From Candidatus Babeliales bacterium (GTDB taxonomy: Bacteria; Babelota; Babeliae; Babelales; JACPOV01): a stretch of DNA of 64,000 nucleotides. Below the pieces are notes generated by a model that saw only the letters and a list, made by a program, of their open reading frames with translations, made no database searches and had not been told where the DNA came from. The DNA lies in contig JBFWNW010000002.1 in the NCBI GenBank assembly GCA_050250855.1, positions 69,925 to 133,924 of the forward strand. The letters run 5' to 3'. Positions 9,674-51,486 of this stretch are shown in pieces. Made by a program: the position numbers and the translations under genes. Every line of letters begins with the position of its first letter. The first letter of the stretch is position 1.

Positions 9674-10519
9674 TTATGGATTTCCATATTTTTTGAATAT
9701 TTTTTCAACAAAAATACGGTTTGATTCTTTAGAAAGCTTTACTGCATGGTTATAATCAGCATTAAGTTTAAACGTTTTTTCTTCATTGCAACGATCAAAA
9801 CCATAGCCTTCCCATAATTTTTCCCAGTTTTCTTTATACTCCAAACAACTGAGAATGGTAGGCAATGCTCCTTCAAGCCAAGCATCATTTTTTCTATAGA
9901 TTTCGCACAGTTCAATAAAATCATCTTTATATACCGCTGGTATATATGCTATATCTGCATATGCATGACAGATGCAATTATCTCCCCAGTTAGCTTTTAA
10001 CATTTCCTTATAGCAATCAGGCGTTTCTTTATAAGCATTCTTTAGTGCTTCATAACCAAATTTTGTTGGCCACCAACAATTAGTAATTGCTCTAATCCCT
10101 TTATTTAAATTAACAGCTTCTCCAATATCATATCTATGCCAATTAACGAATACATGATTAGCGGCCCATATTTTTGATAGATCAAAACGATTATAACGCC
10201 AAACATTCATTAAGCAATCATCGTGACAGAACAAATACCCTTTATAATCAGGAAATCTTTGCATAGCATCACTAAGAGCATAATAACTAAATGCCCCTCG
10301 CTCCTCTTCAATCGCATAAACGTCAGGACACTCACTTGGTCCATAAAAAATTACTTTAGAAAAATAAGGCTCATAGATCTTTTTTAAAAATGAGATTGCT
10401 TCATAATGAGCAAAATTAAAATTTATAATTAAAAGAACATCATCAAACATTTTTCCATAATTAGAAAAAATAATAGTAAAGACAAAAAAATAAACAATTC
10501 TTTTACTAAAAAAAACCAT
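9674..10519 (-). CDS. Hypothetical protein, last gene of the glycan locus; possible glycosyltransferase
   Basis: 281-aa ORF with a hydrophobic N-terminus (IVYFFVFTIIF). I recognised no family motif. Function is guessed from context only. Confidence 0.35.
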   Translation of the reverse strand: MVFFSKRIVYFFVFTIIFSNYGKMFDDVLLIINFNFAHYEAISFLKKIYEPYFSKVIFYGPSECPDVYAIEEERGAFSYYALSDAMQRFPDYKGYLFCHDDCLMNVWRYNRFDLSKIWAANHVFVNWHRYDIGEAVNLNKGIRAITNCWWPTKFGYEALKNAYKETPDCYKEMLKANWGDNCICHAYADIAYIPAVYKDDFIELCEIYRKNDAWLEGALPTILSCLEYKENWEKLWEGYGFDRCNEEKTFKLNADYNHAVKLSKESNRIFVEKIFKKYGNP

Positions 10520-10531
10520 AGGTTTCCCTTT

Positions 10532-11611
10532 CTAGTGTGTTATAGTTTTATAATAGCTATAAGCCTTTTCAAGCATAGCTATTTGCTCCGGTGTAAAAAT
10601 TAACTCTCTTTTGTAATCAGGAATAGTTAATGATAACACGGTATCAATAAAATATTCTGTAGAAAATAGAAATGCCATTTCGCTCTTCAAGTAAGCTTTA
10701 ATATTTTTAATATATTGATCATATTCTTCTTTTTTCATCTTTTTCATAAATTTATATAATTCTCGATTATTTTTAAATTTACGGCGATCAATAAAGCAAC
10801 TTGGCCATACACAATCGGTAATATTTTCTGCACCCCAATAGACTGGTACACAGCCAGAAACTAAACAATCAAAAATTTTTTCTGTAATATAGCCAGGAAC
10901 ATTATTACAATTTTCATAACAAATGCAAAATTTATAATTTTTTAATACTGGGCGTTTATGAGGAACCTTGCCTTTAAATGTCTTAAATTGCGATGCAGGC
11001 CAACCACCTTCACCATAAAAATCAAATTTTTTTCTCCTTTTACTTTTTTTCTCAAAAAAATTAATTACTTCTCTTCGTGCAGAATATAACTGGCCAACTC
11101 CTCCTGACATCTTATAGCTTACTATCATAGTGCACAATTTCTTTTGATCAAAAGAAGGAATATCTTTTTCTATTTCTAATGATGGTTGAGGATAAAAAAA
11201 CTTTAAAGCTTTATCGTTATCAATCATTGCATCAGATAAATATAAAATTTTTTTACAATAAGGCCGATAATCAAAACTATACATTCCTGGCGCAATCAGA
11301 GGCGGTTCAAAAACTCCAAAAATAGATTTTTCTTGCAATGTTTTCGGCAAAAGATCGACATTAGGAGTATTTAAAAAAAAAGCCCCTATACAATTATCAT
11401 CATTATAATCACTAAGCTCTAAACAGCTTGGATGATAACCAAGATTTTTTATGGCTTGTGCAAAATCGTAAAACATCTTCCATCCATTATCGCGACAAGG
11501 GTAATTAGGAATATTTAATATTTCATCAGACAAATTAAAATAAAATACTTTTTCTGTTCCAACTACAGTAAAAAAAGCTAAAAAAACTAATACTCTTATC
11601 TTATTATTCAT
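10532..11611 (-). CDS. GT10-family alpha-1,3/4-fucosyltransferase (copy A1)
   Basis: GT10 signature FCICYENCNNVPGYITEKIFDCLVSGCVPVYWG; compare H. pylori FutA FENS..GYVTEKI...IPIYWG. Signal-like N-terminus. Confidence 0.85.
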   Translation of the reverse strand: MNNKIRVLVFLAFFTVVGTEKVFYFNLSDEILNIPNYPCRDNGWKMFYDFAQAIKNLGYHPSCLELSDYNDDNCIGAFFLNTPNVDLLPKTLQEKSIFGVFEPPLIAPGMYSFDYRPYCKKILYLSDAMIDNDKALKFFYPQPSLEIEKDIPSFDQKKLCTMIVSYKMSGGVGQLYSARREVINFFEKKSKRRKKFDFYGEGGWPASQFKTFKGKVPHKRPVLKNYKFCICYENCNNVPGYITEKIFDCLVSGCVPVYWGAENITDCVWPSCFIDRRKFKNNRELYKFMKKMKKEEYDQYIKNIKAYLKSEMAFLFSTEYFIDTVLSLTIPDYKRELIFTPEQIAMLEKAYSYYKTITH

Positions 11612-11618
11612 ATATTTT

Positions 11619-12467
11619 CTACGCCTTCAAGTAACTATGTTGTAAATGGGGATTAAAAAAAAGAGCCGCGAGCGCAACATTTGATACGCCATGGATAAAA
11701 TGATCACACTTAGAAAGCAACTGTGTTTCAATCAAAACCTGTTCTCCCATTAATGCTCTATTTTTTACTTGTTGGTTCCATATATGTAATCCTGTATCAT
11801 CAAGAGATCGATAGGAGTCATAATAGATCACCTTACCAGGTAATTTCTTTTTTAATTCATCAAGAACTCGTTGATCATCAGTCGCTACCAAAAATTGTGC
11901 TCCCTTATGCTTAGAAGCCTCTTCTATATACTGCTTAAGAGGAATTCGCGGTGCTTCATTATGGTCTGTTCTGCGTACATGAATACCGACCGTCTTTTTA
12001 CCTTGCATATTTTTGTGATAAAAATCATCAATTTTTGCACTAATTTGAGGTTTTATATGTATATATTTTTCTATATATGAGTTAATAAAAGATCTATATT
12101 CATAAGAAAAATTTTGTTCATATCCAATATATCCGCAAGGTATAGCTTGACCATCTGGCGTAACATAATCTTCATGTATTACATCACCAGAATTATACTG
12201 AGCTTCTGAGACGGGATAAAAATAATATTCCCAAATATTATCACTTCCATTATAAGTTCCTGATACTTTATAATAAGCAGGAGCACGGTTCCAATGTACC
12301 ACAAGATCTAGCCCTTTTTCTTCACACCATATAAGATGACTGACTACACCAAATATATTAGAAAAAAGACCTGCCCAGCGACCACCTAAAACATAATGAT
12401 CTTTTGAAAAAGAGAAAAAACTAAAAAATATAATCGACATACAAAGAAAACAAGAATAATTTTTCAT
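11619..12467 (-). CDS. GT23-like (FUT8/NodZ-type) fucosyltransferase (copy B1)
   Basis: GIHVRRTDH ... FLVATDDQRVLDELKKKLP ... GLHIWN ... closely parallels FUT8 IGVHVRRTDK ... VYLATDDPSLLKEAKTKYP ... GLHNRY. Signal-like N-terminus. Confidence 0.75.
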   Translation of the reverse strand: MKNYSCFLCMSIIFFSFFSFSKDHYVLGGRWAGLFSNIFGVVSHLIWCEEKGLDLVVHWNRAPAYYKVSGTYNGSDNIWEYYFYPVSEAQYNSGDVIHEDYVTPDGQAIPCGYIGYEQNFSYEYRSFINSYIEKYIHIKPQISAKIDDFYHKNMQGKKTVGIHVRRTDHNEAPRIPLKQYIEEASKHKGAQFLVATDDQRVLDELKKKLPGKVIYYDSYRSLDDTGLHIWNQQVKNRALMGEQVLIETQLLSKCDHFIHGVSNVALAALFFNPHLQHSYLKA

Positions 12468-12502
12468 TAACTATTTCCTCAACAAAAATCTGTTTTATAG
12501 CT

Positions 12503-13387
12503 CTAAGAAATAACCAAGCCTACCTTAAAATCTTCCGTCATTTTTAAATATATGCTTTTTAATAATGGATTAAAAAACAATGCACCCAAGGAAACATTTG
12601 ATACAGAGTGAATAAAACAATCGCACAAAGAAAGTAGCTTTGATTCTATAAGCACTTGCTCTCCCATAAGAGCTTTATTATCTACTTGTGGGTTCCATAT
12701 ATGCAATCCTTTATTATTTGAAGAACGATACGCATCATAATAAATAACGTTTCCCTTTAGTTTTTGTTTTAAAATATCTAACACTGATTGATCATCGGTC
12801 GCTACTAAAAACTGCACATCTTTAAAAGAATTTGCCACCTGAATATAAGCATTAAGAGGAATGCGTGGCGATTCATAATGATCTGTTCTTCTAACGTGAA
12901 TTCCTATTGTTGCTTTACCTTCCATATTTTTTTTATAAAAATCATTCATTTTTTCAAGAATAGAAGGCTTTATGTGAATATATCTTTGAATATAGGAGTT
13001 AATAAATGATCTATATTCATAAGAAAGATTTTTTTCATATAAATAATATAAACATTCAATAGCTTCTCCATCTGGTGGCGTATAATCTGCGTGCAATTCA
13101 TCACCAAGTTGATAGTGAGCTTCTGAAACAGGATAAAAATAATATTCCCAAATATTATCACTGCCATTATAACCATCACTCATCTTGTAAAAAGAAGGCT
13201 CATCTTTCCAATAAACTACTAAGTCCATTCCCTGTTTTTCACACCAAATGAGATGATTAATGACCCCAAGGATATTTGAAAATAACCCTGTCTGCCGACC
13301 TGTCAAAACATAATAATTATTACTTAAACAAGAAAATGATTGTCCTAAGAAAAAAACTCCTATAATAATTTTTACAAAAAACCGCAT
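12503..13387 (-). CDS. GT23-like (FUT8/NodZ-type) fucosyltransferase (copy B2)
   Basis: Paralogue of 11619..12467: GIHVRRTDHYESPRIPL, FLVATDDQSVLDILKQKL. Confidence 0.75.
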   Translation of the reverse strand: MRFFVKIIIGVFFLGQSFSCLSNNYYVLTGRQTGLFSNILGVINHLIWCEKQGMDLVVYWKDEPSFYKMSDGYNGSDNIWEYYFYPVSEAHYQLGDELHADYTPPDGEAIECLYYLYEKNLSYEYRSFINSYIQRYIHIKPSILEKMNDFYKKNMEGKATIGIHVRRTDHYESPRIPLNAYIQVANSFKDVQFLVATDDQSVLDILKQKLKGNVIYYDAYRSSNNKGLHIWNPQVDNKALMGEQVLIESKLLSLCDCFIHSVSNVSLGALFFNPLLKSIYLKMTEDFKVGLVIS

Positions 13388-13390
13388 AAC

Positions 13391-14461
13391 TTATCCTATT
13401 TTTTTAAACAAAAAAGAACAATAATCCTTTGCCTTTTCAAGGTTAGTTATTTGTTCCGGGTTAAAAATAAGCTCTTTTTTATAATCAGGAACTGTTAATG
13501 ACAAAACTAAATCAATAAAATATTCCATAGAAAATAAAAACGCCATTTCACTCTTTAAATATGCCTTGATATTTTCAATATATTGATCGTATTCCTCTTT
13601 TTTCATATGCTTAATGAAATTGTACAACTCTTGATTATCCTTAAATTTACGCCGATCAATAAAGCAATTTGGCCATACATAATCGGTAATATTTTCTGCA
13701 CCCCAATAAATAGGGACACATCCTGCAACTAAACAATCAAAAATTTTTTCTGTAACATATCCTGGCGCATTGTTGCTATTTTCGTAACATATACAAAACT
13801 TGTAATTTTTGAGCACTGGTCTTTTGTGAGAAACCTTCCCTTTATAGGTTTTAAATGACGCTGGCCATTCAATACCATATACATCAAGCTCTTGGACTCT
13901 TTGAGGATCTGAATCAAAAAAATTAACTACACTAAGACGTTGGGTAAATAATTCTCCAGGCCTTTCTATAAATTTATAGGTTGCAATAAGTGCACATAGT
14001 TTTTTTTCATGAAAATCTGGAATATCCTCTTCAATCTCCAGTGAAGGTTGAGGATAAAAAAATTTAAATCTCGTATTGTTATCAATCTTATTATCCAAGA
14101 GATATAAAGTTCTAAAAGGATAGAAGGTTGTTGTATAATAACCAGGAGCAATAATAGGCGGCTCCCATAATGAGAATAAACATTTTTCAGGAATTAGATT
14201 CGGTGAAATATAATTGGGCAAATTAATAAAAAAAGCACCTGCATAATCTTTTGATCCCAGATAATCAAATTCTTTTACCTCATAACCAAGTTTTTTTGCC
14301 GCCTGAGCTAATTCATAAAAAACTCTATAAGCAGCATCTCTTTGCGGATAAGAAGTATCAGTAAAAGTAACTTCTGGAAGATTTATATAAAAAATCCTTT
14401 GATCAGCTTCACTCAAAAAAACCTGTAATAAAAAAGTAATTCCTAATAAATAGCGCACCAT
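13391..14461 (-). CDS. GT10-family alpha-1,3/4-fucosyltransferase (copy A2)
   Basis: FCICYENSNNAPGYVTEKIFDCLVAGCVPIYWG. The C-terminal half is nearly identical to copy A1. Confidence 0.85.
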   Translation of the reverse strand: MVRYLLGITFLLQVFLSEADQRIFYINLPEVTFTDTSYPQRDAAYRVFYELAQAAKKLGYEVKEFDYLGSKDYAGAFFINLPNYISPNLIPEKCLFSLWEPPIIAPGYYTTTFYPFRTLYLLDNKIDNNTRFKFFYPQPSLEIEEDIPDFHEKKLCALIATYKFIERPGELFTQRLSVVNFFDSDPQRVQELDVYGIEWPASFKTYKGKVSHKRPVLKNYKFCICYENSNNAPGYVTEKIFDCLVAGCVPIYWGAENITDYVWPNCFIDRRKFKDNQELYNFIKHMKKEEYDQYIENIKAYLKSEMAFLFSMEYFIDLVLSLTVPDYKKELIFNPEQITNLEKAKDYCSFLFKKIG

Positions 14462-15933
14462 TATACTATGCCAAAATTATACAGCTTTCTCTTTTGATAT
14501 AGCTGCTGATCATACCTAAAATATTGTGCATTACGCACATATAAAGGATCGTTATGATCAGAACCATCTAAAGGGTAATTATTCTTAATAAGCTGCTCAT
14601 AGAATATTTTTTCTTTACCGAGTGAACGGGCTACTTCAGCCAGTTCATTATCGCAGTAATATGATTTATATTCTGGATAATAAATATATCCAAACCGTTT
14701 ATAATACATTCTGCCTATAATAGGATAAATAACATAGTCTTTAGGATCTCTGCCATCTGAAAAATTAAGGATACCGTCAAAATCAGGAAAATGTTTCAAC
14801 ATTTGACGCACTATAACTACATCATAGTTTTTTACGATAGGTTCAAGATCATCACTTACTACTAAAATAACGTCAAACTTATCAATAAAATCATCGATAT
14901 CTTTATTGTATGCTTCAATTTTTGAACTACTATTGCCAAAGCGATAAGAAAGATTTGGCAAACTATCAAGAATACTTATTACCTTGGCATTATTCATAGT
15001 TGGATCATCTTGATCGCACGTAATTAAAAAATGGTAGGGAATGGTTCCTGATAACATCTCATAGTACTTTTTTAAATATTGGAAAAATTGTACCGGACGA
15101 TAACGCGTTGGAATTTTTATAAGTAGACGAACTAACTGCTCTCTTGACTGCTTGCAAGCATGAAATGCTATAGTATCTATATCTTTTTTATATGCACTAT
15201 AGGGCCTTGGAGGTAAACAATCAACATAAGTACCTTCTTCAATACGGCCCACATCATAGCGCCAATTAATTTTATCTATTCTCGTGCGTGGTGAAACTAC
15301 ATCAGTTTTGCCCAATCGTATACAGCGACTCTCATAACCATCCCACGCAAGTACCGTTTTATATAACATTTTTTGATCAGTGGTCCATCCAATTGCAGTA
15401 TCATGCCATTCTTTAATCTTTTGAGGGATATCCTCTTTTGTGAAAATCTTAAAAATTTCTGCAAAAATTTTACCTTTACCTGCAACATAGCACATAGGAA
15501 TTTCTTTGAATTGTCGTTCAAACTCTTCGCTATCTCGATAAACAACAAAAACATCATCAGCTAAATCTTTAATACGCTCGGTAAAATAATCTCGAGAAAG
15601 AGGTAATAAGTCTATATCAGAAACTATGCAACAATCATTGGGAAATAACAAGGGCAAAAATAAGCGAATACATTGAGCATATAATGACGTTGGTATGCCT
15701 GGAATAGGCTCAAAGCGAATAATGTCACCTAATGATTCATCTATTTCTACACTTTTATCTGCAATTAAAGCTAACGTTGGCCTTATACCAACTACTTCTT
15801 TCCACATCTTGGCAACCAGCGGCCAGTATTCTATATAATTGGGATTTGCATCAGTAGACAAAATAACACGATCAAGCGTTAAAGCTTCTGCTTTAAAAAT
15901 ACATAAAAAAAGTACTACGTATATTCTTCTCAT
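14461..15933 (-). CDS. Hypothetical two-domain protein, possible glycosyltransferase
   Basis: 490-aa ORF with signal-like N-terminus MRRIYVVLFLCIFKAEA and 1-nt overlap with the downstream gene. No family motif recognised with confidence. Confidence 0.4.
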   Translation of the reverse strand: MRRIYVVLFLCIFKAEALTLDRVILSTDANPNYIEYWPLVAKMWKEVVGIRPTLALIADKSVEIDESLGDIIRFEPIPGIPTSLYAQCIRLFLPLLFPNDCCIVSDIDLLPLSRDYFTERIKDLADDVFVVYRDSEEFERQFKEIPMCYVAGKGKIFAEIFKIFTKEDIPQKIKEWHDTAIGWTTDQKMLYKTVLAWDGYESRCIRLGKTDVVSPRTRIDKINWRYDVGRIEEGTYVDCLPPRPYSAYKKDIDTIAFHACKQSREQLVRLLIKIPTRYRPVQFFQYLKKYYEMLSGTIPYHFLITCDQDDPTMNNAKVISILDSLPNLSYRFGNSSSKIEAYNKDIDDFIDKFDVILVVSDDLEPIVKNYDVVIVRQMLKHFPDFDGILNFSDGRDPKDYVIYPIIGRMYYKRFGYIYYPEYKSYYCDNELAEVARSLGKEKIFYEQLIKNNYPLDGSDHNDPLYVRNAQYFRYDQQLYQKRKLYNFGIV

Positions 15934-15943
15934 AGCTATCTCT

Positions 15944-17305
15944 TTATTCAGTACATGAAATTAAACAAATATCTTCTTTGTCTTTGGATAAATCATAAGA
16001 TTGTATAGTTGAAAGTGATAATACAGTATTTCTTTTTACTATCATGCCACATGAATCTGCAGGAGACATAAATTTTACTTGTGAAATAGCTAAACCATCC
16101 CATAGATATGAAGCATTTTGCTGAGAAGAAAAATCTTTTTTGGATAGTATACAGAAATTTGATTTTGTATCATGCATAGCTTCTGCACAAATTTCTCTAT
16201 TTTTTAATGTTTCTAAAGCTTTAACGTCTGTAATAACACAATAATAATCATAATTAACATCTTTTAACCAAAAATCAGGTGATGCATCCTGCGATGGGTT
16301 AATAACAAACGTATAATGAGAGTAAAGAGAAGCTAATTGTTCATAATCATTTTTATGAGATAAGTCTCCACAGCAAATAACGTTTAGATTTTCATTTTTA
16401 TATAAACCTTTAAATGCGCTTAATGTCTCTGCAAGTGTATTTGGATCATTAGCATAGATCAAAAAAGGAATAGATTTTTTTTGATACGATTCTCGATAAG
16501 GTCTTTGTTCAAGGGGTTTGTATGCCGACCGGCTGCTAATAACCTTTCTTAAAAATTGTTGCTTTTCCCAGTTAGTTGCACCATCTGCAATTGGATTATC
16601 TTCATTGTAGCGATATAAAATGTTTGGGTTAAATTTGTAATGATTAATTGCCATCTCTATAATTGGATACACCCAAGAAACGTCCTGTGCCATAGAGAAA
16701 AACATACCTTCATGTAGTAAATCTTTAAGAGCAACTTCTCTAAAAAGCCATGCATACATGCAACGAGGAGGACTAAAATACCAATTTTGACGAATAAGAT
16801 TACGCTGCTTTACCATAGGAGGAATATCACCAGACCATGGTGCATAACCGTTTCTTGTTCCCCAAAAATTACCGTAGGTAAACCAAATAGATTCATCACT
16901 AAACTGTTCATTGATTGATGATAAAACATCTTTTGTAGTAAAGGTATCATCGCCATCCAAAATTACTGCAATTTCATGAGGTTTGCAGAATTTATAAAAG
17001 GCATACACAATATTTCTGAGCGCAAGACCACGAATTTCATTTTTAATAAGAGTAACGCGATGATGTATATCATACTGATCAATAAAAGCCTTTGCATTTG
17101 CATAAGTATTATCAGGAGAACAATCATCTATATAAACAACGCGAAATTTTTCATAATCCTGCATAAGAACTGATGCTAAATTTTCATTGCATACATCTTG
17201 ATTTTTATAAGAAGGAATAATAACAACAATATCATGCTGATATGCTGCTGCTATAGTATATACTCCCCCTACAAAAATTAATCCAAAAAATAGTTTTAAA
17301 TTCAT
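15944..17305 (-). CDS. GT2-family glycosyltransferase with an extra C-terminal domain
   Basis: VVIIPSYKNQD...VVYIDDCSPDNT and DGDD (DXD) motifs. Preferred start MNLKLFF at 17305 forms an ATGA overlap with the upstream stop. An alternative start lies at 17335. Confidence 0.8.
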   Translation of the reverse strand: MNLKLFFGLIFVGGVYTIAAAYQHDIVVIIPSYKNQDVCNENLASVLMQDYEKFRVVYIDDCSPDNTYANAKAFIDQYDIHHRVTLIKNEIRGLALRNIVYAFYKFCKPHEIAVILDGDDTFTTKDVLSSINEQFSDESIWFTYGNFWGTRNGYAPWSGDIPPMVKQRNLIRQNWYFSPPRCMYAWLFREVALKDLLHEGMFFSMAQDVSWVYPIIEMAINHYKFNPNILYRYNEDNPIADGATNWEKQQFLRKVISSRSAYKPLEQRPYRESYQKKSIPFLIYANDPNTLAETLSAFKGLYKNENLNVICCGDLSHKNDYEQLASLYSHYTFVINPSQDASPDFWLKDVNYDYYCVITDVKALETLKNREICAEAMHDTKSNFCILSKKDFSSQQNASYLWDGLAISQVKFMSPADSCGMIVKRNTVLSLSTIQSYDLSKDKEDICLISCTE

Positions 17306-18243
17306 ACACACTTCCTTATTTGCTTTAAGTACCATTGAAAATTTTTAATATCATTTCTTGAACTATAAATATGGGTATTTTCATTAACAAAATCACCTTG
17401 CCAGGTAATATAAAAAGGAATTGAAACCTGATTATAATCCAAAAGCATAGGAACTTTCTGCGTATAGTCTTGTTTATGAATGCAAAGATCTTTTAAATAG
17501 GCTAAAATTCCCAACAACGCTTGTTCATAGCGAGCACAACCAAACCCTTCAGGAGCTGTCCCATCATCAATAAAATTTCTTAAATCTTTGCTCATGTTAT
17601 ATAAGGGAGTAATAAAAAGATCTTGTGCTTTTTGCGCTACACCAATAACACCAGCCATAACTGCCTCTTGTGAAAGTATCCATTGATACTCGGGAGCATC
17701 AAGATTAAATTTATTTCTTACATAACGCGTTGTCTGCCATGCAATGGGATGTCTAAATTTACCATTATCACGCTCATTACCAATAGTAGCTAAAAAATAT
17801 CCTTTGTGCTGTATATATTCAAATAAATCATCAAGAGGACGCAATACCGTTGAGCCTGCATCTATCCATAGAACATAGGGAAATCTTTCTAAAGCCTGTT
17901 TTATAACAACAGGTTTCCATGCAAACCATCCAGGAACCATTCTTCCTGCCTTATTAATTACTACCTGCCTGAGTAAGTCAGGATGCGTTAATTCAACATT
18001 ATAAACTGCTATATTTTGAATAGTTTTAAGAAAAGAAATTTGTTGTTCTTCAAGGCCTAAATCAAAAACAGCAATTTCGTTAATATTGTCATAATTTGTA
18101 GCATGTAATGATCCAATTAAATTTAAAAGCTTAGAAAAATATTTTGCATCACATGCAGTACAATAATACTGAGGAATAGCTTGTAGAAAAGCCATTCCTC
18201 CTAATAAAGCTAACCATACATAAAGAGTCTTTCTTTTTATCAT
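17302..18243 (-). CDS. Nucleotide-diphospho-sugar-transferase-like protein
   Basis: Signal-like N-terminus. FAWKPVVIKQALERFPYVLWIDAGS resembles GT-A families with a W-K-P...D-x-D/S core. Family assignment is uncertain. Confidence 0.45.
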   Translation of the reverse strand: MIKRKTLYVWLALLGGMAFLQAIPQYYCTACDAKYFSKLLNLIGSLHATNYDNINEIAVFDLGLEEQQISFLKTIQNIAVYNVELTHPDLLRQVVINKAGRMVPGWFAWKPVVIKQALERFPYVLWIDAGSTVLRPLDDLFEYIQHKGYFLATIGNERDNGKFRHPIAWQTTRYVRNKFNLDAPEYQWILSQEAVMAGVIGVAQKAQDLFITPLYNMSKDLRNFIDDGTAPEGFGCARYEQALLGILAYLKDLCIHKQDYTQKVPMLLDYNQVSIPFYITWQGDFVNENTHIYSSRNDIKNFQWYLKQIRKCV

Positions 18244-18249
18244 TACTCT

Positions 18250-18840
18250 TTACTCAAAAAATGTACGAATATCTATAGTATCACTGACAATCGTTGTCTG
18301 AATTGCATAACGCAAATAAGTATAACGATATTTGAAAGTTGCAAGAACTGGTTCATACCCATATGCAGGTTCTTCTGTATCATGTACAACAAAAATATCT
18401 GCATTATGGCGCAAACGCTCAATATCAACTCTTCGTCTATCACCAGGACGATGATCAACAAAAACCACTGACCAATAGCGATCTGTTCCTACAGCATCCC
18501 ATAATTCTGGCTTTGGATTCTTTGCCCAATCATCTTCAAAAACAGGAATATAGCTAAAATGATGCCAATCTCGTGCCAAATCTATAAATAAAGAAAGCCA
18601 TCTTTTATCAGTATCTGTTGTAAGAAGAAACCGTTTTGTTACTGAACAAACAGCATGCAAAAGTGGCGTACTATAATCCCCAGATCCAAGTTCTAAAATA
18701 GGCCCTTTAGTATTTGCCACGACCGTCATAAGAGGAGCCATGTGAGTCCCATAATTGCCATCACCAAGACGTCTATTCGCTTCTATAAACTGGCCATTTA
18801 AACTCAATAAAATTATGAATAAAAATAATTTTTTTTGCAT
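18250..18840 (-). CDS. Possible SAM-dependent methyltransferase-like protein
   Basis: ILELGSGDYSTP resembles Rossmann motif I, and VVFVDH / VVHDTE strands follow. Start MQKKLFLFIILL at 18840 avoids overlap with the upstream gene. Confidence 0.35.
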   Translation of the reverse strand: MQKKLFLFIILLSLNGQFIEANRRLGDGNYGTHMAPLMTVVANTKGPILELGSGDYSTPLLHAVCSVTKRFLLTTDTDKRWLSLFIDLARDWHHFSYIPVFEDDWAKNPKPELWDAVGTDRYWSVVFVDHRPGDRRRVDIERLRHNADIFVVHDTEEPAYGYEPVLATFKYRYTYLRYAIQTTIVSDTIDIRTFFE

Positions 18841-18853
18841 ACTATTCCCTCTT

Positions 18854-19774
18854 TTAAAAAGACCAATCAATATCCCAAATATCTAAATCTTTAAAGTAAC
18901 CTTTTCCATACTGTTCAAACCATGCCAATACCTGTTTTTTCCTCCATAAAATTGGTTTATCCCATACAGAAAAATCAAGAAATTCATAACCTTTAAACCA
19001 ATATACTGGAGATGGTTGCGTTCTTAATCCTCGCTCATCTTTTGAAGGGAAATAACGCACATTAATTTCCTGGCAAGATTTTTCTGGTTGCCTGATACGC
19101 TCAAGACAGCGATACCACGCTTGTTTTTCTAATAAGTTTTGCCAATTAACAAACTGAAAATGCAAAAGGCCATATTCATAACCCTGTAAACGGAATCTTT
19201 TTCCTTGCACGGGAAAACTACGATTATGCAAAAAGTATGAAGGAAAATTTGAAACACCATCATCGCAAAAAATAACAGGTTTATAATCATTGGTCCATTT
19301 TGAGTCATCAAAACGATAGCGATCTATTGTTCTCCAGAGTTGAATCCAACAAACCTCCATACTTTCTCCTGGCTGCAAAGAAAGAATAAGTTTGCGTAAA
19401 AAATTATTATCTGAACAGTTTGCAGTAAACATTTCATCCGCATCAATTAAAACAAAATGAGTACCACCAAGTGCTCTGCCAGCATCTAATAATTTCTGCT
19501 TGTTATCACTTTCTTTGCCAACTTGCCAGCCAGATTGTTCATTGCGCAAAATGACAAATTCTTTGCCAAGCTTTTTACAACATGATTCAACCAGAATTTT
19601 AGTGCTATCTTCAGAATTATCATCAAGCGTAACAAATGCATCAACATAAAAAGACAATGCTTGTAAACATTGCTCAATACATTGCTCTTCATTTCTTACT
19701 TGCATAAGACTTACTATTTTAGGTGAAGCAGTTAAAGATAAAAAAGTCCCTAACAATAATAATAATTTAAACAT
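18854..19774 (-). CDS. GT2-like glycosyltransferase
   Basis: VSLMQVRNEE...VTLDDNSEDST and LIDADEMF (DXD) motifs. Start MFKLLLLLG at 19774 is preceded by AAGGAG. Confidence 0.6.
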   Translation of the reverse strand: MFKLLLLLGTFLSLTASPKIVSLMQVRNEEQCIEQCLQALSFYVDAFVTLDDNSEDSTKILVESCCKKLGKEFVILRNEQSGWQVGKESDNKQKLLDAGRALGGTHFVLIDADEMFTANCSDNNFLRKLILSLQPGESMEVCWIQLWRTIDRYRFDDSKWTNDYKPVIFCDDGVSNFPSYFLHNRSFPVQGKRFRLQGYEYGLLHFQFVNWQNLLEKQAWYRCLERIRQPEKSCQEINVRYFPSKDERGLRTQPSPVYWFKGYEFLDFSVWDKPILWRKKQVLAWFEQYGKGYFKDLDIWDIDWSF

Positions 19775-19787
19775 ATTCAGCACTCCT

Positions 19788-20636
19788 TTACTGAACAAAT
19801 GCTTCTTTTTTTAACCAGCTTCCTGCCCAATGGTGCACCGCATATGATTCAGGTTTTTGCCATTCTGAGGCAGGGGTTCCTCGTTGTTCATAACCACATG
19901 GGTAAAAGTAACTAGCGGGAAAAGCTACGATACGAAATTCTTGCATCATAGAGGGAACATATTTTAAAAAAAGTTTAGTAAAAAACAAAGGACCCGTTCT
20001 TAGTATAATCTGAATCTCATGAGATGAATTACGCAACTCTTCAATACATTTTTGCAATAATGGATGATGAGGAATAGACGCTATTAAAGCATTGTTAAGC
20101 TGGACCATATTGGTATCCAAAGGTTGAATACCGGTGTAAAAATCATAAATACATAAAGAATTCATTGATTTTAAACATTCAAAATCGGTATCAATGTAAA
20201 TACCCCCAAATTGCTCTAAAATTTCATAACGCCAAATATCAGACTTTTCACCATAATTCTTTGAAGCATCAAATAGATCTTTATTACGCCACGCAAATGA
20301 TGCTACATCTGCATCTGTCCATAATTTATATTCCCAGCCAGGATTATGCTTCAACCAGCTTTCTTGATAAGCGCGGTATTTTTCAGGAAAAGGACTACCA
20401 AGCCAAATTTGATGTATTATTTTAGGGATACGAACAGACGTCGGCACAATTCTTGCTGGTGAAAATAAGTTATATAAACGCTCAAAAAAGTTTTTAAGCA
20501 TCATATTATTATTCTTTTCAAGAATATGTTTATATGAATCAGCTTGCATTGATGTATTAAAATCTACCCATATAAAATTTTCCTGTGCACAAACTAAAGA
20601 ACTAAAAAGAAACGTTATGCTTAATAGTTTTTTCAT
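19788..20636 (-). CDS. GT32-type glycosyltransferase with a DXD sugar-binding region
   Basis: IPKIIHQIWLG...NPGWEYKLWTD...SDIWRYEILEQFGGIYIDTDFECL is a classic Gly_transf_sug/OCH1-type signature. Signal peptide MKKLLSITFLFSSLVCA. Confidence 0.8.
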   Translation of the reverse strand: MKKLLSITFLFSSLVCAQENFIWVDFNTSMQADSYKHILEKNNNMMLKNFFERLYNLFSPARIVPTSVRIPKIIHQIWLGSPFPEKYRAYQESWLKHNPGWEYKLWTDADVASFAWRNKDLFDASKNYGEKSDIWRYEILEQFGGIYIDTDFECLKSMNSLCIYDFYTGIQPLDTNMVQLNNALIASIPHHPLLQKCIEELRNSSHEIQIILRTGPLFFTKLFLKYVPSMMQEFRIVAFPASYFYPCGYEQRGTPASEWQKPESYAVHHWAGSWLKKEAFVQ

Positions 20637-20638
20637 AA

Positions 20639-21670
20639 TTATACCCTTGCTTGTTTATAAGATTTTTCTGGTACAACCTTGTGCGCTAAATACCAAAAAT
20701 ATGCTTCCTTTAAACCATTTTTCAATGAAGTTTTTGCTGTCCAACCAAGCTGTGAAATTTTATCAACATTTAATACTTTTCTTGGCGTGCCATCTAAAGT
20801 ATTGATATTAAAAAGGATTTCTCCTGCATACCCAACGATCTCTTTAATTAAAGAAGCTAGTTCGGCAATTGTTATATCTTTACCGGTCCCAATATTAATA
20901 TGACCCGATTCTTCATAACTATTCATTAAAAATAAGCATGCTTGCGCTAAATCATCGACGTATAAAAATTCTCGCAACGCTTTACCCGTTCCCCATAAAG
21001 AAACTGACGGTTTATTTTCTTCTTTTGCTGCATGAATTTTTGCAATAAGTGCAGGAATAACGTGCGATGATTCAAAGTCAAAATTATCATGAGGACCATA
21101 AAGATTTGTTGGCATACAAGAAATAAATTTTGTACCATATTGCCTGTTATAGCTTTTGCATAAAAGTATGCCGGCAATTTTTGCAAGCGCATACGGCTCA
21201 TTTGTTTTTTCAAGTTCATCGGTCATTAAATACTCTTCTTGTATTGGTTGAGGACAATTACGAGGATAAATGCAAGAAGAACCTAAAAATAAGAGCTTTT
21301 TAACGCCATTGGTATACGATGCATGAATAATATTTGCTTCAATCATAAGATTGTCATAAATAAATGAGGCTGGAAAATCATTATTTGCTTTAATGCCGCC
21401 AACTTTTGCAGCAGCCAAAAACACATATTCCGGTTTTTCTTGGTTGAAAAAATCATGTACCGCTGCTTGGTTGCGCAAATCAAGTTCTGCAAAACTACGC
21501 GTTATAAGGTTAGTATATCCTTCAGCTTGCAACGCTCGCATTAAAGCAGAGCCAACCAACCCCTGACCTGCTATATAAATTTTTGCCTGCTTGTCCATAT
21601 GTGCTTCACTAACACCAGTAAAAAGATTAAAAATCAAGCCTATACTCATTATCTTTGTTACGTAGTTCAT
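20639..21670 (-). CDS. fcl: GDP-L-fucose synthase (GDP-4-keto-6-deoxymannose 3,5-epimerase/4-reductase)
   Basis: Collinear with E. coli Fcl from [11 protein letters not shown] (ATG at 21598) to the C-terminus: [33 protein letters not shown]. An upstream in-frame ATG at 21670 has a strong AGGAGA SD and adds the hydrophobic 24-aa segment [24 protein letters not shown]. Confidence 0.9.
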
Positions 21671-22859
21671 GAGATTCTCCTGATAATTTTTGAGCTGCAA
21701 TGTAGATATTTGAGCCGGTTGCCTCACTTTTTAATTCCCATGCAATTTGTTCTAAATCTGCATCCATCATTAGACAAACTAAATCTTTAAAGGTTGTTTT
21801 TGGCTCCCAACCAAGAAGTTTTTTTGCTTTGCTAGGATCACCCAGTAAAATTTCAACTTCAGTCGGTCTGAAATAACGAGGATCAACCGCTATCAACAGC
21901 TCACCAGTTTTTTTATTGTATCCTTTTTCCTCAGCACCTATACCGCGCCATTCTACCGTAATACCAACACGTTCAAATGCTAATTCAACAAACTCTCTTA
22001 CGGTATGCGTTTGTCCGGTTGCAACAACCCAATCTTCAGGCTTTTCATACTGTAAAATAAGCCACATTGCTTCTACATATTCTTTGGCATAGCCCCAATC
22101 TCGTTTTGCATCAAGATTACCTAAATAAATAGGATCTTTTTTACCTAAAGAAATTGCGGCTACCGCACGCGTAATTTTTCTGGTTACAAAGGTTTCGCCA
22201 CGTAAAGGAGATTCATGATTAAATAAAATACCATTTGCAGCAAACATGCCGTAGGCTTCTCGATAGTTTACCGTTATCCAATAGGCATAAAGTTTTGCAA
22301 CACCATAGGGAGAACGTGGATAAAAAGGGGTCGTTTCTTTTTGAGGAATTTCTTGTACGTTGCCATACATTTCTGAAGTTGATGCTTGGTAAAATTTCGT
22401 TGTTTTATCAAATCCGGTTACACGCAATGCTTCTAATAAACGCAAGGTACCTATGCCATCAGCATTTGCTGTATATTCTGGCACTTCAAAAGAAACTTTT
22501 ACATGAGATTGTGCTGCAAGATTATAAATTTCATCAGGCTTAATTTCTTGTATCAAACGAATAAGATTGGTAGAATCGGTCATATCACCAAAGTGTAAAA
22601 AGAAATTTCCTTTCTTTTTATTATGAGGATCACGGTATAAAGGATCTATGCGATGCGTATTAAACATTGATGAACGACGTTTAATGCCATGAACTTCATA
22701 CCCTTTACCCAGTAAAAATTCAGCCAAGTAGGCCCCATCTTGACCAGTTATACCGGTAATTAAGGCAACTTTTTTCTTCATACTCTGCTCTCCTGCAAAA
22801 AAAGTACTGAATCCTAAGCAAGCTACTGCAACAAAAATTTTTTTATAAGAGTGCTTCAT
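21627..22859 (-). CDS. gmd: GDP-mannose 4,6-dehydratase
   Basis: Collinear with E. coli Gmd from [16 protein letters not shown] (ATG at 22781, AGGAGA upstream). The longer ORF from 22859 adds [26 protein letters not shown]. Confidence 0.92.
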
Positions 22860-22874: not shown

Positions 22875-23903
22875 TTATGTATAATGATGGCTATTTTTTT
22901 CCCGTAATTGATGCAAAATATGTTTTACTTTATCTGTCTGATCTCGCTTCGCTATTAAAAGAACATCATCTGTTTCTACAACACATAGATCTTCAACGCC
23001 TATAAGTGCTACGAGCTTTTTTGGCACCTGAACAATATTATTAGCTGCGTGCAATTCAATAACTTCTGTTTGCTGTTGGCTATGCTTTTTGTGCAAAGAA
23101 AGAAATATTTCTAAGTTGCCAACATCTGACCATGTAAAAGAGCAGGGCTGTACATACACGGCATTACTTTTTTCTAATACCGCATAATCAATAGAAATAT
23201 TTTCGGCATCTTTGTAATCTGCTTTATGTTCAAAAAAATCACATACCACCTTATATAGCTGTTGGGCATGACGATTGTATTCTTCTATAAAAACAGAACT
23301 TTTGGCACAAAAAATACCTATATTCCATAACATGGTATCCATGGTACTATATACATCCGCCAATTGCGCTGAAGGTTTTTCATGAAAACGAGAAACTTTT
23401 ACAACATCATTTTTTTGCGCTGCCATTTCTATGTAGCCATAGTTTGTTGCGGGAAAATCAGGACGAATTCCTAACAATGTTATGGCATCATGAGCTTGCG
23501 AAAATTCTAACGCATTATTTAAATGTTTGGCAAATTGGTCATCTTCTACAATAAAAGCATCAGCAGGTAAAAAAGCTATAATTGCTGAAGGGTCTTTTTG
23601 TTGAATATAAAGCGTAGCCAAAAGTAATGCTGGCGCTGTATTGCGGCCAATTGGTTCAGACAAAATGCCGCCTATAGAATCTCCCAAAAGACTTTTAATA
23701 GAATCAACCTGCTGCTCAGTTGTCATAATAAAAATATTATGTTTTTCAACAATTAAAGAAGCACGCATAACAGTACGCTCAAGCAAAGAATTTTGATCAT
23801 CAAGAGAGAGCAGCTGCTTTGGCTTTTTCTCTCTACTCAAAGGCCATAAACGCTCACCTTTGCCTCCAGCTAAAATAACAATATAGCGTGATGTTATATC
23901 CAT
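22875..23903 (-). CDS. manC: Mannose-1-phosphate guanylyltransferase (nucleotidyltransferase domain only)
   Basis: VILAGGKGERLWPLSREKKPKQLL N-terminal NTP-transferase signature. At 342 aa there is no C-terminal isomerase/cupin domain. Confidence 0.8.
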   Translation of the reverse strand: MDITSRYIVILAGGKGERLWPLSREKKPKQLLSLDDQNSLLERTVMRASLIVEKHNIFIMTTEQQVDSIKSLLGDSIGGILSEPIGRNTAPALLLATLYIQQKDPSAIIAFLPADAFIVEDDQFAKHLNNALEFSQAHDAITLLGIRPDFPATNYGYIEMAAQKNDVVKVSRFHEKPSAQLADVYSTMDTMLWNIGIFCAKSSVFIEEYNRHAQQLYKVVCDFFEHKADYKDAENISIDYAVLEKSNAVYVQPCSFTWSDVGNLEIFLSLHKKHSQQQTEVIELHAANNIVQVPKKLVALIGVEDLCVVETDDVLLIAKRDQTDKVKHILHQLREKNSHHYT

Positions 23904-23909: not shown

Positions 23910-24623
23910 TTATTTTTTTCTTCGTTCAAAAAACAAACGACAAAATGTTTTAGCTGCTTCTTTCATAATTGCTACTGAAAGCTTTGAATCGCCATGAATT
24001 CTATTACGTGCATGAATCGGAATTTCTGTTATACGCAAACCATCCTCTTTAAAGCGATACAGTGATTCAATGCAGAAAGAAAATCCTTTTGAACTTACTT
24101 TTTTATAGACATGAGGCTTTAATTTTTGTACAGAATATAAACGGTAAGCACCGGTACAATCGTACGGCATACCAAGGCCTCGTTTAATTAAATTTCGCCA
24201 AAAGTAAGTAAATGGTAAACGAATTCTTCCCCAACCGCTCATGCCACCGCCATGAATATAGCGTGAACCAATAACGACATCATGAACATCTCTTTTTTCA
24301 AAAAGAGCAGGAATATAACGCGGATCGTGCGTAAGATCTGCATCCATCGTAATTAAAAATTTATAATTATGTTTTTGCGCATATTCAAATGCCTGCACGT
24401 GAGCCGTTCCTAAACCAAGCTTTGCAGGGCGATGCATAACATGCACAGAAGGATCTTTTTTACTTAAATCATCAAGAACTTTTCCGGTGCCATCTGGAGA
24501 ATTATCATCACAAAAAAGAATATCAACATCTTCTTTGTGCTTCTTTATTTCTTCATACAAAATTAAAACATTGTCACGTTCATTATAGGTGGGAACAAAA
24601 ACTAAAACTTCATTTTTTTGCAT
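23910..24623 (-). CDS. Polyprenyl-phosphate sugar synthase, Dpm1/Ppm1-like GT2
   Basis: VFVPTYNERDN...DILFCDDNSPDGTG...HRPAKLGLGTA...ITMDADLTHDP is the canonical dolichol/polyprenol-phosphate mannose synthase pattern. Confidence 0.8.
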   Translation of the reverse strand: MQKNEVLVFVPTYNERDNVLILYEEIKKHKEDVDILFCDDNSPDGTGKVLDDLSKKDPSVHVMHRPAKLGLGTAHVQAFEYAQKHNYKFLITMDADLTHDPRYIPALFEKRDVHDVVIGSRYIHGGGMSGWGRIRLPFTYFWRNLIKRGLGMPYDCTGAYRLYSVQKLKPHVYKKVSSKGFSFCIESLYRFKEDGLRITEIPIHARNRIHGDSKLSVAIMKEAAKTFCRLFFERRKK

Positions 24624-24632: not shown

Positions 24633-25985
24633 CTAGTGAATCAATTGGTACGTAATAATAGTATTTTCTTTCTTTGCACAACGATATGCAACAACCATAC
24701 CAAAAGCAGAAAAAAGGATAAAGAAGTATTCAAACATCATCCGATAGCGCGCACATCCGTCATGTCCTGTTATAAAGGAAAAATAAAAAATTGAAATAAT
24801 GACAAAGCTAACTATAAAATAATATTTTTTATGCCATAGAGCATAAAGGCCGATCATGATAAAAAATAGTTGCAATACCATCCAGAGTAATTGTAAAAAT
24901 GCAATAATATGTATTAAACGCGATGAAGTGCCATCAACTACATAATGGTAAAAACGATTATATAAAGAGCCTGACTTTGAAAAAAATGATGTTTCCGTAC
25001 CTTTTAACGATGGATTTACTAAAAATTTAAGTTGATTCGTATACAAAGCACCTACCGTCTTTATCATGTTATGCAACCAAATACGTACAACTAATACTGG
25101 TTTTTCATAAAAATAAGAATGCATCAATGCTTTTGGTTTATTCCAACGCGTATGATCATTATGATGTTTACCATCCATTAACGTACCGACCTGAACTAAT
25201 CCTTCTGCCCATGAGATACCTTGGTCATGTGCTATAACTTTTGCCAAAAAATAAAAATAAATATTTTCATGCATTAAAGGGGCAATTGTCATAGAACCAA
25301 ATTGATACTTATTGTGTAGCATATAACCAGCAACAGGAATATAAAAACAAAACAAGCACAGTAAAATGGCATTCAATACTTTTTGTCTCTGTAAATAAGC
25401 ATGTAGCCCGACAAAAAAGATTACTATGAAAATATAAAAAAGCGCTACCGGTTTTACCGCAACTGAACAACCATACAATAAGCCTGCTAGGGCTAAAGAA
25501 GATAAGCTAGACGTTTTAAAATACGTACATAAACGCTCAAGAGAAGCTATCAAGAAAAATGCTAAAAGCACTTCTGTGAGCATAAATTGACTGTATATTA
25601 AAAAACCAAGATTAAAAGATCCTAACAAAACAGTTACTTGTGCAACATGTTCATCAAAAAGCATGTATGCTATGCGATAGAGCAACAATAACGCTAAAAG
25701 GCTTAGCAAGATTTGTGCAATAATGACCCATGTGTGATGAAAACCAAATAACTTATAAATACTACCTAGAAAAAATGGGTACCCTAATGTTTGAACGGGA
25801 ATAATGGATCCTCGTTGAGGATCCATTAATTGATTATCTGTTGCAAAATAGTTGCCTATTGCCACATATCCTGATGAATCAAGATCACAATGAGCTTCAT
25901 AGGCAGGATTTATCCTATACAAACTGTAGGATAATAAACAAAAAATAACTATCGAACAGAGTAAAACTATTTTTGTACTATTCAT
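24633..25985 (-). CDS. GT-C fold membrane glycosyltransferase (PMT/ArnT-like)
   Basis: 450 aa with many predicted TM helices. CDLDSSGY acidic motif in the first extracytoplasmic loop. 4-nt overlap with the upstream gene. Confidence 0.65.
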   Translation of the reverse strand: MNSTKIVLLCSIVIFCLLSYSLYRINPAYEAHCDLDSSGYVAIGNYFATDNQLMDPQRGSIIPVQTLGYPFFLGSIYKLFGFHHTWVIIAQILLSLLALLLLYRIAYMLFDEHVAQVTVLLGSFNLGFLIYSQFMLTEVLLAFFLIASLERLCTYFKTSSLSSLALAGLLYGCSVAVKPVALFYIFIVIFFVGLHAYLQRQKVLNAILLCLFCFYIPVAGYMLHNKYQFGSMTIAPLMHENIYFYFLAKVIAHDQGISWAEGLVQVGTLMDGKHHNDHTRWNKPKALMHSYFYEKPVLVVRIWLHNMIKTVGALYTNQLKFLVNPSLKGTETSFFSKSGSLYNRFYHYVVDGTSSRLIHIIAFLQLLWMVLQLFFIMIGLYALWHKKYYFIVSFVIISIFYFSFITGHDGCARYRMMFEYFFILFSAFGMVVAYRCAKKENTIITYQLIH

Positions 25986-28159: not shown

Positions 28160-29485
28160 TTAAATTTCTCCTTGCATATGATCTATAATTGAGCGAATTG
28201 CTGCATTACTTGCAGGCCAAAATAGTTTTTCTTGTGTATCTTGTTCCTTGTGAGGCTCATAAAAAATACCACAAAAATCCAAAATCTTTTTATGCTGTAT
28301 ATCAAGTGCATCTATTTTTTTAAATGCTGTATGTTTTACAAGACATAAGATAATATCAGCCTGTTCGATGCCTTTTTGTAATGAAACACCATCGTGACCA
28401 AAAATTTCTACAATATTCTCATTGTGAATGTATGGATCACAAATCAGTAAATTCATATCAGTAAAAATTGAAAGTTTTTTTGCTATTTCTAATGCTGGTG
28501 ATTCGCGTAAATCATCAATATCTGGCTTATAGGTGAGGCCTAAAATAAGTACGTTAGCTACTTTTTGATGCGCTTGACGCCAACGCTCAATACAGTAACG
28601 TGTTGCTTGAACAACCTGTCTTGGCTTTGCACTATTAACATCACGAGCCATTTTTAAAAGTTTTGTTTCTTCAGGAAATGTTTGCACTAAAAACCAAGGA
28701 TCAACTGCTATGCAATGCCCACCAACACCGCATGAAGGATTTAAAATATTAACGCGTGGATGTTTATTTGCTAATTCAATAACTTCAAAAGGATTTAAAC
28801 CTATTTTATACGCCATTGCAGCAACTTGGTTTGCAAAGGCAATTTCAACATCACGAGAGCTATTTTCAACTAGCTTTACCATTTCTGCTGTTGTTGCATT
28901 AGTAAGATATAATGCTCCCTTTACAAATGCTTTATAAAATAGTTTTGCTTGCTCAACTGATTCTTGGTTTATACCGCCAATAATGCGAGCATTGTGTACA
29001 AGCTCATGAAAAATCTTGCCTGGCAACACGCGCTCTGGACAATGTGCAACAAAAAAGTCTACGCCTGCCTTTAAGGGGGTAAGCATTTCTAATCGCTCAC
29101 CAAGCTTATCAGTAGCTCGGACCGGCACAGTAGATTCTAAAATAACAACGTCACCCTTTTTGAGTACCGTAGCTATTGAAGCTGCAGCATGCCAAATATA
29201 AGAAAGGTCTGCTTCTTTATTTTCTAAAAATGGCGTTGGTACTGCTATAACAAAAAAGTCAGCCGCTTCTATAGCTTGTATAGCACGGAAATTACCGGAA
29301 GAAAGAGCTTCTCGCAATTTCTCCGAAAGCTCTGGCTCTTCTATGACAGGGTCAAAATTATTAATACGTTCAACTTTTTTTTGATCTATGTCAAAACCAA
29401 CAACATCAAAATCTGCATTTGCTGCAACAATAGCTGTTGGAAGACCTATATAACCAAGACCAACTACACATACCTTTTTTTTCAT
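28160..29485 (-). CDS. wecC: UDP-N-acetyl-D-mannosamine dehydrogenase / nucleotide-sugar dehydrogenase
   Basis: KVCVVGLGYIGLPTA N-terminal Rossmann motif and catalytic GGHC motif (PSCGVGGHCIAVDP). 441 aa. Confidence 0.85.
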   Translation of the reverse strand: MKKKVCVVGLGYIGLPTAIVAANADFDVVGFDIDQKKVERINNFDPVIEEPELSEKLREALSSGNFRAIQAIEAADFFVIAVPTPFLENKEADLSYIWHAAASIATVLKKGDVVILESTVPVRATDKLGERLEMLTPLKAGVDFFVAHCPERVLPGKIFHELVHNARIIGGINQESVEQAKLFYKAFVKGALYLTNATTAEMVKLVENSSRDVEIAFANQVAAMAYKIGLNPFEVIELANKHPRVNILNPSCGVGGHCIAVDPWFLVQTFPEETKLLKMARDVNSAKPRQVVQATRYCIERWRQAHQKVANVLILGLTYKPDIDDLRESPALEIAKKLSIFTDMNLLICDPYIHNENIVEIFGHDGVSLQKGIEQADIILCLVKHTAFKKIDALDIQHKKILDFCGIFYEPHKEQDTQEKLFWPASNAAIRSIIDHMQGEI

Positions 29486-51377: not shown

Positions 51378-51486
51378 TAATAAGTAGGACAAATCAAGGG
51401 TCTATTCTTGCAATCAAAAATAGCCCTTGACAAAAAATTAATATGAAGGGTATTGTGTGAAAGTAATGTCAAAAAAAGGAATATTA

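Follow-up and report, generated by a model that had tools for sequence, protein, structure and literature searches.

The stretch of DNA analysed here (the window, 64 kb) covers positions C2:69925-133924 of the genome of a Candidatus Babeliales bacterium (G000), which amounts to 1.22 Mb in 11 contigs, has a GC content of 35–37% and is 95% complete; related genomes measure 0.7–1.8 Mb. Dependentiae are a phylum whose members live as obligate parasites of protists, amoebae among them. Within the window, a co-directional gene cluster on the minus strand (9674-30685), delimited on its left by the gene for RNase E (8159-9667), encodes enzymes of GDP-fucose synthesis, fucosyltransferases and further glycosyltransferases (GTs), and thirteen of the encoded proteins begin with segments resembling Sec signal peptides. 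In order of transcription, followed by one neighbour on the opposite strand, the genes are:

29501..30685, minus: WecB UDP-GlcNAc 2-epimerase, without signal (Pfam Epimerase_2)
28160..29485, minus: WecC-like UDP-sugar dehydrogenase, without signal (Pfam UDPG_MGDP_dh)
25982..28159, minus: fusion of Zn-dependent oxidoreductase and GFO_IDH_MocA, without signal (Pfam)
24633..25985, minus: PMT protein O-mannosyltransferase, a polytopic membrane protein (Pfam PMT/PMT_2; later transmembrane segments)
23910..24623, minus: Dpm1-like polyprenyl-phosphate mannose synthase of family GT2, without signal (Pfam Glycos_transf_2, E=8e-28)
22875..23903, minus: ManC, GDP-mannose pyrophosphorylase, without signal as judged from its N-terminus (Pfam NTP_transferase)
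21627..22859, minus: Gmd, GDP-mannose 4,6-dehydratase, long form with a signal-like extension of 26 aa (Pfam GDP_Man_Dehyd, E=4e-157)
20639..21670, minus: Fcl, GDP-L-fucose synthase, long form with a signal-like extension of 24 aa (Pfam Epimerase, E=3e-64, and GDP_Man_Dehyd)
19788..20636, minus: GT32 Och1/Sur1-like alpha-mannosyltransferase, signal (Pfam Gly_transf_sug, E=9e-17; TcdA_TcdB, E=4e-11)
18854..19774, minus: GT2-like glycosyltransferase, signal, internal Met (Pfam Glyco_tranf_2_4, weak)
18250..18840, minus: class I S-adenosylmethionine (SAM)-dependent methyltransferase-like protein, signal, start at the internal Met M11 (Atlas matches to SAM-methyltransferase clusters)
17302..18243, minus: GT-A glycosyltransferase (DUF1647/GT8/Nucleotid_trans-like), signal (Atlas feature and structure neighbours)
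15944..17305, minus: GT2 glycosyltransferase, signal, internal Met start, reading frame open to 17335 (Pfam Glycos_transf_2, E=1.9e-15)
14461..15933, minus: GT-A glycosyltransferase (GT2/GT7C-like), signal (Atlas feature matches to GT2/Glyco_transf_7C clusters)
13391..14461, minus: second GT10 fucosyltransferase, signal (Pfam GT10, E=9.3e-16; best PDB match H. pylori FucT, 2NZW)
12503..13387, minus: second GT23-like fucosyltransferase, signal (Pfam NodZ, E=8.5e-5)
11619..12467, minus: GT23 (FUT8/NodZ-like) alpha-1,6-fucosyltransferase, signal (Pfam NodZ and FUT8_N_cat; best solved match FUT8)
10532..11611, minus: GT10 alpha-1,3/4-fucosyltransferase, signal (Pfam Glyco_transf_10, E=1.4e-15; signal conserved in the GT10 alignment)
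9674..10519, minus: STELLO-like glycosyltransferase, Sec-type N-terminal signal (Pfam STELLO, E=1.8e-8)
30817..32298, plus: second PMT-like O-mannosyltransferase (Pfam PMT, E=1.1e-4)

The catalytic domains of Gmd and Fcl are intact by Pfam. Gene order is preserved in the same-genus relative G001 (cluster L044), in the relative G002 (cluster L045) and in L051, a metagenome contig from Logan. The polytopic PMT (family GT39) and the GT2 enzyme of the Dpm1/Ppm1 type together make up a protein O-mannosylation module; with both PMTs (24633-25985 and 30817-32298) counted, this is an actinobacterial-type module in a member of the Dependentiae. Four short open reading frames (ORFs) that overlap cluster genes in other frames (20165-20425 and 22235-22543 on the plus strand, 15297-15557 and 20947-21219 on the minus strand) are probably spurious. 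DNA of the window is found in DNA runs of landfill metagenomes, and a search of sequencing runs yielded no RNA sequencing run containing it.

Among enzymes of solved structure, the nearest relative of the GT10 proteins is the fucosyltransferase FucT of Helicobacter pylori (2NZW), and eukaryotic FucTA and FUT9 are matched as well. In a sequence comparison with solved structures, the GT23 protein encoded at 11619..12467 matched FUT8 slightly better than NodZ. The catalytic domain of the GT32 protein is of the GT-A type and akin to those of effector GTs, as seen from its TcdA_TcdB match; its nearest sequences in the PDB are those of SetA (E=2e-9), YeGT (5e-6) and TcdA, effectors that act on the host, and of yeast Och1. 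Its homologues bear names such as OCH1-like or IPC mannosyltransferase, and several of them are assigned to Candidatus Babeliales, Babeliaceae or Dependentiae. An AlphaFold model of this protein computed from the single sequence was uninformative (predicted local distance difference test score of 35).

Signal-like N-termini of the cluster proteins

The first-pass annotation of the window had claimed that eleven consecutive proteins encoded between 9674 and 20636 carry Sec-type N-termini and that ManC, the Dpm1-like protein, the oxidoreductase, WecC and WecB do not. We judged N-terminal signals by a 12-residue Kyte-Doolittle window, a crude scan for AxA sites and inspection; an early heuristic miscalled signal peptides on cytoplasmic GT4 proteins, and only its descriptive numbers were used. 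All eleven N-termini are encoded where they had been placed, three of them by way of an internal methionine, and reach hydropathy values of 2.17–2.79. N-terminal hydropathy also bears out the absence of signals from the five other enzymes. The values are 1.27 for ManC, 0.37 for the Dpm1-like protein, 1.24 for WecB and 1.46 for the oxidoreductase, and the 1.93 of WecC is due only to the Rossmann GxGxxG strand inside its Pfam catalytic domain. Housekeeping proteins score similarly low (RNase E 0.98, enolase 1.06, aspartyl-tRNA synthetase 0.55, a DEAD-box protein within 0.37–1.46).

A positively charged n-region, an h-region of about 7–15 residues and small residues at positions −1 and −3 define a Sec signal peptide under the von Heijne rules. 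Each of the 13 signal-bearing proteins (the eleven plus Gmd and Fcl) has a lysine or arginine within residues 2–7. Their N-tails comprise 1–6 residues and their hydrophobic cores 10–17, and AxA-like sites are found at positions 15–22 in most of them, the site of Gmd being poor. None contains a twin-arginine motif, and since TatC was not found in the G000 genome, export would be Sec-dependent. Lipoprotein signals were considered and rejected, there being no lipobox. At the sequence level, the N-termini of the eleven proteins have the architecture of Sec signal peptides.

By a crude count, approximately 32% of the genome's ORFs of at least 200 aa have some hydrophobic N-terminal segment. A single N-terminus of this kind therefore means little, and the case rests on conservation. 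Signal-bearing GTs occupy matching positions in the clusters of the two relatives (L044 and L045) and in the Logan contig. A signal-like N-terminus is present in 102 of the 120 best GT32 homologues. The nearest relatives of the GT10 proteins come from Babeliales/Dependentiae and from metagenome-assembled genomes (MAGs) of Chlamydiae; in an alignment, all nine GT10 sequences from Dependentiae and Chlamydiae MAGs begin with a hydrophobic segment, the segments themselves having diverged in sequence. Such conservation in the face of divergent sequence argues that the N-termini are not a product of chance.

Two further observations concern the GT10 family. Dependentiae MAGs (relatives L001, L005 and L008) encode fusions of GT2 and GT10 that are about 850 aa long and have N-terminal signals, and the structural neighbours in the Atlas include a GT2+GT10 cluster from giant viruses (Nucleocytoviricota), a hint that genes have been exchanged between parasites associated with amoebae. 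Signal-bearing proteins are also encoded elsewhere in the window. Two large paralogues on the plus strand (33681-35117 and 35447-36886) have near-identical N-termini (MKNHFKKLLLFGLLGAMPTIFAEK...) and go back to a recent tandem duplication, the protein being probably secreted, and two small signal-bearing proteins on the minus strand (3734-4120, MFLAHYKNFALVVLL..., and 4252-4890, MFLSRYKNFALAALL...) are paralogous to each other.

Upstream starts of Gmd and Fcl

The same annotation had noted that the gmd ORF is open for 26 codons upstream of its canonical start and that fcl has an upstream ATG at 21670 preceded by a strong Shine-Dalgarno (SD) sequence. Both statements were confirmed. The long form of Gmd begins at an ATG at 22859 with the SD ggaaatagga at 22870-22861, and the internal ATG at 22781 has an SD of its own, caggagag. 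With both starts so equipped, dual initiation is possible, by which one gene would give rise to an exported and a cytoplasmic Gmd. The ATG of fcl at 21670 follows an AGGAGA SD (21681-21676) located 5 nt upstream, and the canonical ATG (21598-21596) has a weak SD only.

Extensions of Gmd recur across the family, divergent in sequence and conserved in hydrophobicity. In the related genomes G004, G023, G033 and G039, Gmd has no internal methionine ahead of the catalytic domain, so that the signal-bearing form is obligatory there. Both Gmd paralogues of G033 and of G039 bear signals, leaving these genomes with no signal-less Gmd; G004 has none either, and G023 encodes one signal-bearing and one plain paralogue. 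The long signal-bearing form accounts for seven of the 120 best Gmd homologues, and these seven all seem to belong to this lineage; cluster look-ups assigned no taxonomy to the signal-bearing Gmd proteins. Fcl varies in its extension, which is present in G000 and in the relatives G004, G013 and G033 and absent from G001, G002 and L051. The bacterial Gmd/Fcl pathway is usually cytoplasmic and signal-less, a pattern from which the signal-bearing forms of G000 and its relatives depart by sequence. Across the cluster as a whole, the distribution of signals mirrors the pathway: they are found on the fucose branch and on the GTs of eukaryotic type, and are missing from the enzymes making GDP-mannose and polyprenyl-phosphate mannose.

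Genome setting and candidate secretion route

A second group of genes in the window encodes components of a type II secretion system (T2SS), recognized with Pfam and NCBIfam:

51457..60033, plus: T2SS-type cluster, candidate outer-membrane exit
51457-52638, plus: GspC
52651-55296, plus: GspD-1
55293-56912, plus: PilM/GspL-like protein
56909-57478, plus: further protein of the T2SS-type cluster
57475-60033, plus: GspD-2

Both GspD proteins score under the NCBIfam cut-offs for GspD and for PilQ alike and may belong to a T2SS or a type IV pilus. Two T2SSE (GspE ATPase) and four T2SSF (GspF platform) proteins, which may likewise serve either system, are encoded elsewhere in G000, so that GspC, GspD, GspE and GspF are all represented. 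The two GspD copies are the only secretins of the genome, and FHIPEP/SctV of the type III secretion system (T3SS) was not found in it. Judged from gene content, the cluster of GspC and two GspD copies is the only outer-membrane secretion system of G000. Two copies of GspD and a T2SS as sole secretion system are hallmarks of the candidate phylum TM6/Dependentiae (PMC4776705, PMC4378268), in keeping with the assignment of G000 to this phylum. Babela massiliensis, which has no T3SS, encodes signal-bearing ankyrin and Ulp1-like proteins, and the cytoplasm of the amoeba is the presumed site of action of its effectors with signals (PMC4378268); in Chromulinavorax, 44% of the proteins have a signal or a transmembrane segment (PMC6561590).

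Contig C3 of G000 encodes three NTT ATP/ADP translocases (C3:146985-147959, C3:181371-184193), a sign of an energy parasite. Nucleotide-sugar transporters of the NST and TPT families (PF04142, PF03151) were not found in the genome. With ManC lacking a signal and no such transporter encoded, any GDP-mannose used outside the cytoplasm would have to be that of the host. NADP+ is held tightly by Gmd, and NADPH is the cofactor that Fcl consumes; both abound in the host cytosol and are not expected in the periplasm. Since Gmd, Fcl and the SAM-methyltransferase would together require NADP+, NADPH and SAM, the host cytosol is the compartment that could supply them all.

Interpretation and comparison with known systems

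The signals, their conservation and the pathway that they follow suggest that the cluster encodes a glycosylation kit exported via Sec and probably the T2SS, which would fucosylate and mannosylate molecules of the host or of the parasite at the expense of host metabolites and would most probably act in the cytosol of the host or at the host-parasite interface. We put the probability of this reading at about 0.5. ManC and the Dpm1-like enzyme would act inside the cell, producing GDP-mannose and polyprenyl-phosphate mannose for the bacterium's own periplasmic O-mannosylation by the membrane-bound PMT. Sec would carry the kit, that is, Gmd, Fcl (in this genome), the two GT10 and two GT23 enzymes, the GT32 enzyme, several GT-A/GT2 enzymes and the SAM methyltransferase, over the inner membrane, and the shapes of the h-regions suggest that the signals are cleaved. 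The T2SS would serve as the outer-membrane exit, as in Babela, and the kit would operate at a site at which the host provides GDP-mannose, NADP(H) and SAM. There Gmd and Fcl would make GDP-fucose and the four GT10/GT23 fucosyltransferases would consume it, the targets being molecules of the host or secreted or surface proteins of the parasite itself. The first-pass annotation had proposed, as one of two options, export to a host compartment holding nucleotide sugars, possibly through the secretin system; the conserved, pathway-specific Sec-type N-termini support the export part, and the host compartment is plausible. The ATP/ADP translocases of the genome and the kinship of the GT32 protein with host-acting effector GTs also speak for this reading.

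In its fullest form the proposal would have a complete kit, leading from GDP-mannose to fucosylated glycans, secreted into the host cytosol, where it would constitute an extra-Golgi station running on host GDP-mannose and NADPH and placing host-like fucosylated glycans on host proteins or the parasite surface, with some relatives making exported and cytoplasmic Gmd from one gene with two starts. We regard this extended version as tentative and rather doubtful.

Several points weigh against an exported kit. An internal start preceded by an SD is present in the Gmd of G000 and also of G001 and G002, which may thus produce a cytoplasmic isoform as well; in the public annotation of G000, Gmd is called from this internal start (384 aa). 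In G001, G002 and L051, the two steps of GDP-fucose synthesis would take place in different compartments if Fcl were not cytoplasmic there. Signal cleavage, passage through the T2SS, the host compartment, the substrates and the targets are all inferred. Babela, moreover, replicates at least partly in a host vacuole (PMC4378268); by analogy, T2SS cargo would then reach a vacuole lacking NADPH and not the cytosol.

The strongest of the alternatives, although on balance we consider it unlikely, is a Golgi-like glycosylation in the periplasm, where signal-bearing enzymes, released or anchored with the N-terminus inside and the C-terminus outside, would elongate the O-mannose glycans started by PMT on periplasmic and outer-membrane proteins, with host nucleotide sugars and perhaps NADP(H) entering through pores while the bacterium resides in the host cytosol. 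The O-mannosylation module in the cluster, with its two PMTs and Dpm1-like synthase, is consistent with such a scheme, as is the action of eukaryotic GT10, GT23 and GT32 enzymes in the lumen on glycans started by GT-C enzymes. The GTs of the locus are also slightly rich in cysteine (median 1.6% against 1.2–1.3% genome-wide), as would suit oxidative folding outside the cytoplasm; however, DsbA and DsbB were not found in the G000 genome, which gives no evidence of disulfide machinery. Without an NST or TPT transporter, periplasmic GDP-mannose could come only from the host through porins, and the NADPH needed by Fcl (approximately 745 Da) is probably too large for general porins.

Far less probable is the second option raised by the first-pass annotation, namely that the N-termini are type II signal anchors of Golgi enzymes inherited from eukaryotes by horizontal transfer, with no special export function. 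GT10, GT23 and GT32 are indeed Golgi-luminal families in eukaryotes, and the affinity of the GT23 protein to FUT8 and the OCH1-like and IPC mannosyltransferase names among GT32 homologues point the same way. Gmd and Fcl, however, are cytosolic in eukaryotes and bear the same kind of signal here. In place of an uncleaved transmembrane segment of 18–22 residues, the proteins have the short tails and cores described above, followed by cleavage-like sites, and the nearest solved relatives of the GT10 and GT32 proteins are bacterial. Eukaryote-inherited anchors were accordingly rejected as a general explanation on the grounds of the Gmd and Fcl signals and the core lengths.

More improbable still is tethering to the membrane in the N-out/C-in orientation, with the catalytic domains cytoplasmic and next to lipid-linked acceptors. 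Membrane association is known from some bacterial GT complexes, and a number of the segments are positively charged on both flanks (in Gmd, KHSYKK before and KKK after), but short positive N-tails favour N-in/C-out under the positive-inside rule and inspection reveals the AxA-like sites in most of the proteins. Least probable of all is an artefact of mis-called starts or of chance hydrophobic N-termini in an AT-rich genome, which the genome-wide frequency of such segments and the public call for Gmd might suggest, but which fits neither the conservation of signals across lineages despite divergent sequence, nor the Gmd proteins without an internal start, nor the lack of such N-termini in housekeeping enzymes.

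If the kit is indeed exported, the GDP-fucose branch would be the first exported bacterial branch of nucleotide-sugar synthesis known, together with its transferases. Glycosylation of the eukaryotic type would then be carried out by obligate protist parasites beyond the limits of their cytoplasm, with metabolites drawn from the host. Such a system would be a novel way of hijacking host metabolism, and it could explain why Golgi-type enzyme families have retained N-terminal targeting signals in bacteria. To our knowledge, no textbook bacterial pathway works in this way. The literature searched contained no report of glycosyltransferases in Babeliales, none of an exported Gmd and none that connects fucosyltransferases with the Chlamydiae found in amoebae, and as far as these searches go, an exported GDP-fucose branch combined with fucosyltransferases in one conserved cluster has not been described.

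The closest likeness within the phylum is to the secretomes of other Dependentiae, which share the Sec signal, the T2SS as presumed route to a protist host and a reduced, host-dependent genome; glycosylation enzymes, however, have not been reported among their secreted proteins (PMC4378268, PMC6561590). A precedent for a GT pathway operating outside the bacterium on host nucleotide sugars is found in Chlamydia trachomatis, whose GlgA and GlgB are secreted into the inclusion and use host UDP-glucose supplied by the co-opted host transporter SLC35D2 (PMC4829429). That system depends on a T3SS and makes glycogen, and involves neither signal peptides nor exported sugar-nucleotide synthesis. Effector GTs such as the GT domains of the large clostridial toxins TcdA/TcdB, SetA of Legionella and YeGT of Yersinia are GT-A enzymes that likewise act outside their producer on host nucleotide sugars, and their domains are matched by the GT32 protein described here. 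Each is a single enzyme delivered by self-translocation, a type IV secretion system or a T3SS, whereas in G000 a whole pathway including nucleotide-sugar synthesis bears Sec signals and would presumably use the T2SS.

The O-mannosylation system of actinobacteria (Pmt and Ppm1) resembles the PMT and Dpm1-like pair of the cluster in being periplasmic and fed by a lipid-linked donor from the cytoplasm, but here the pair goes together with Leloir GTs and a GDP-fucose branch that both bear signals. The H. pylori alpha-1,3-fucosyltransferase, although the nearest solved GT10, is cytoplasmic and has no signal peptide. Eukaryotic Golgi GTs (FUT3-9 of GT10, FUT8 of GT23, yeast Och1 and Sur1-Csg1 of GT32) belong to the same families, have an N-terminal hydrophobic segment with the catalytic domain outside the cytosol, and likewise produce fucosylated and mannosylated glycans on sugars begun by GT-C O-mannosylation (PMT). 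The bacterial system differs from them in that no Golgi exists and no nucleotide-sugar transporter is encoded, the N-termini are signal peptides of bacterial style in place of type II anchors of about 20 residues, and Gmd and Fcl are targeted along with the transferases.

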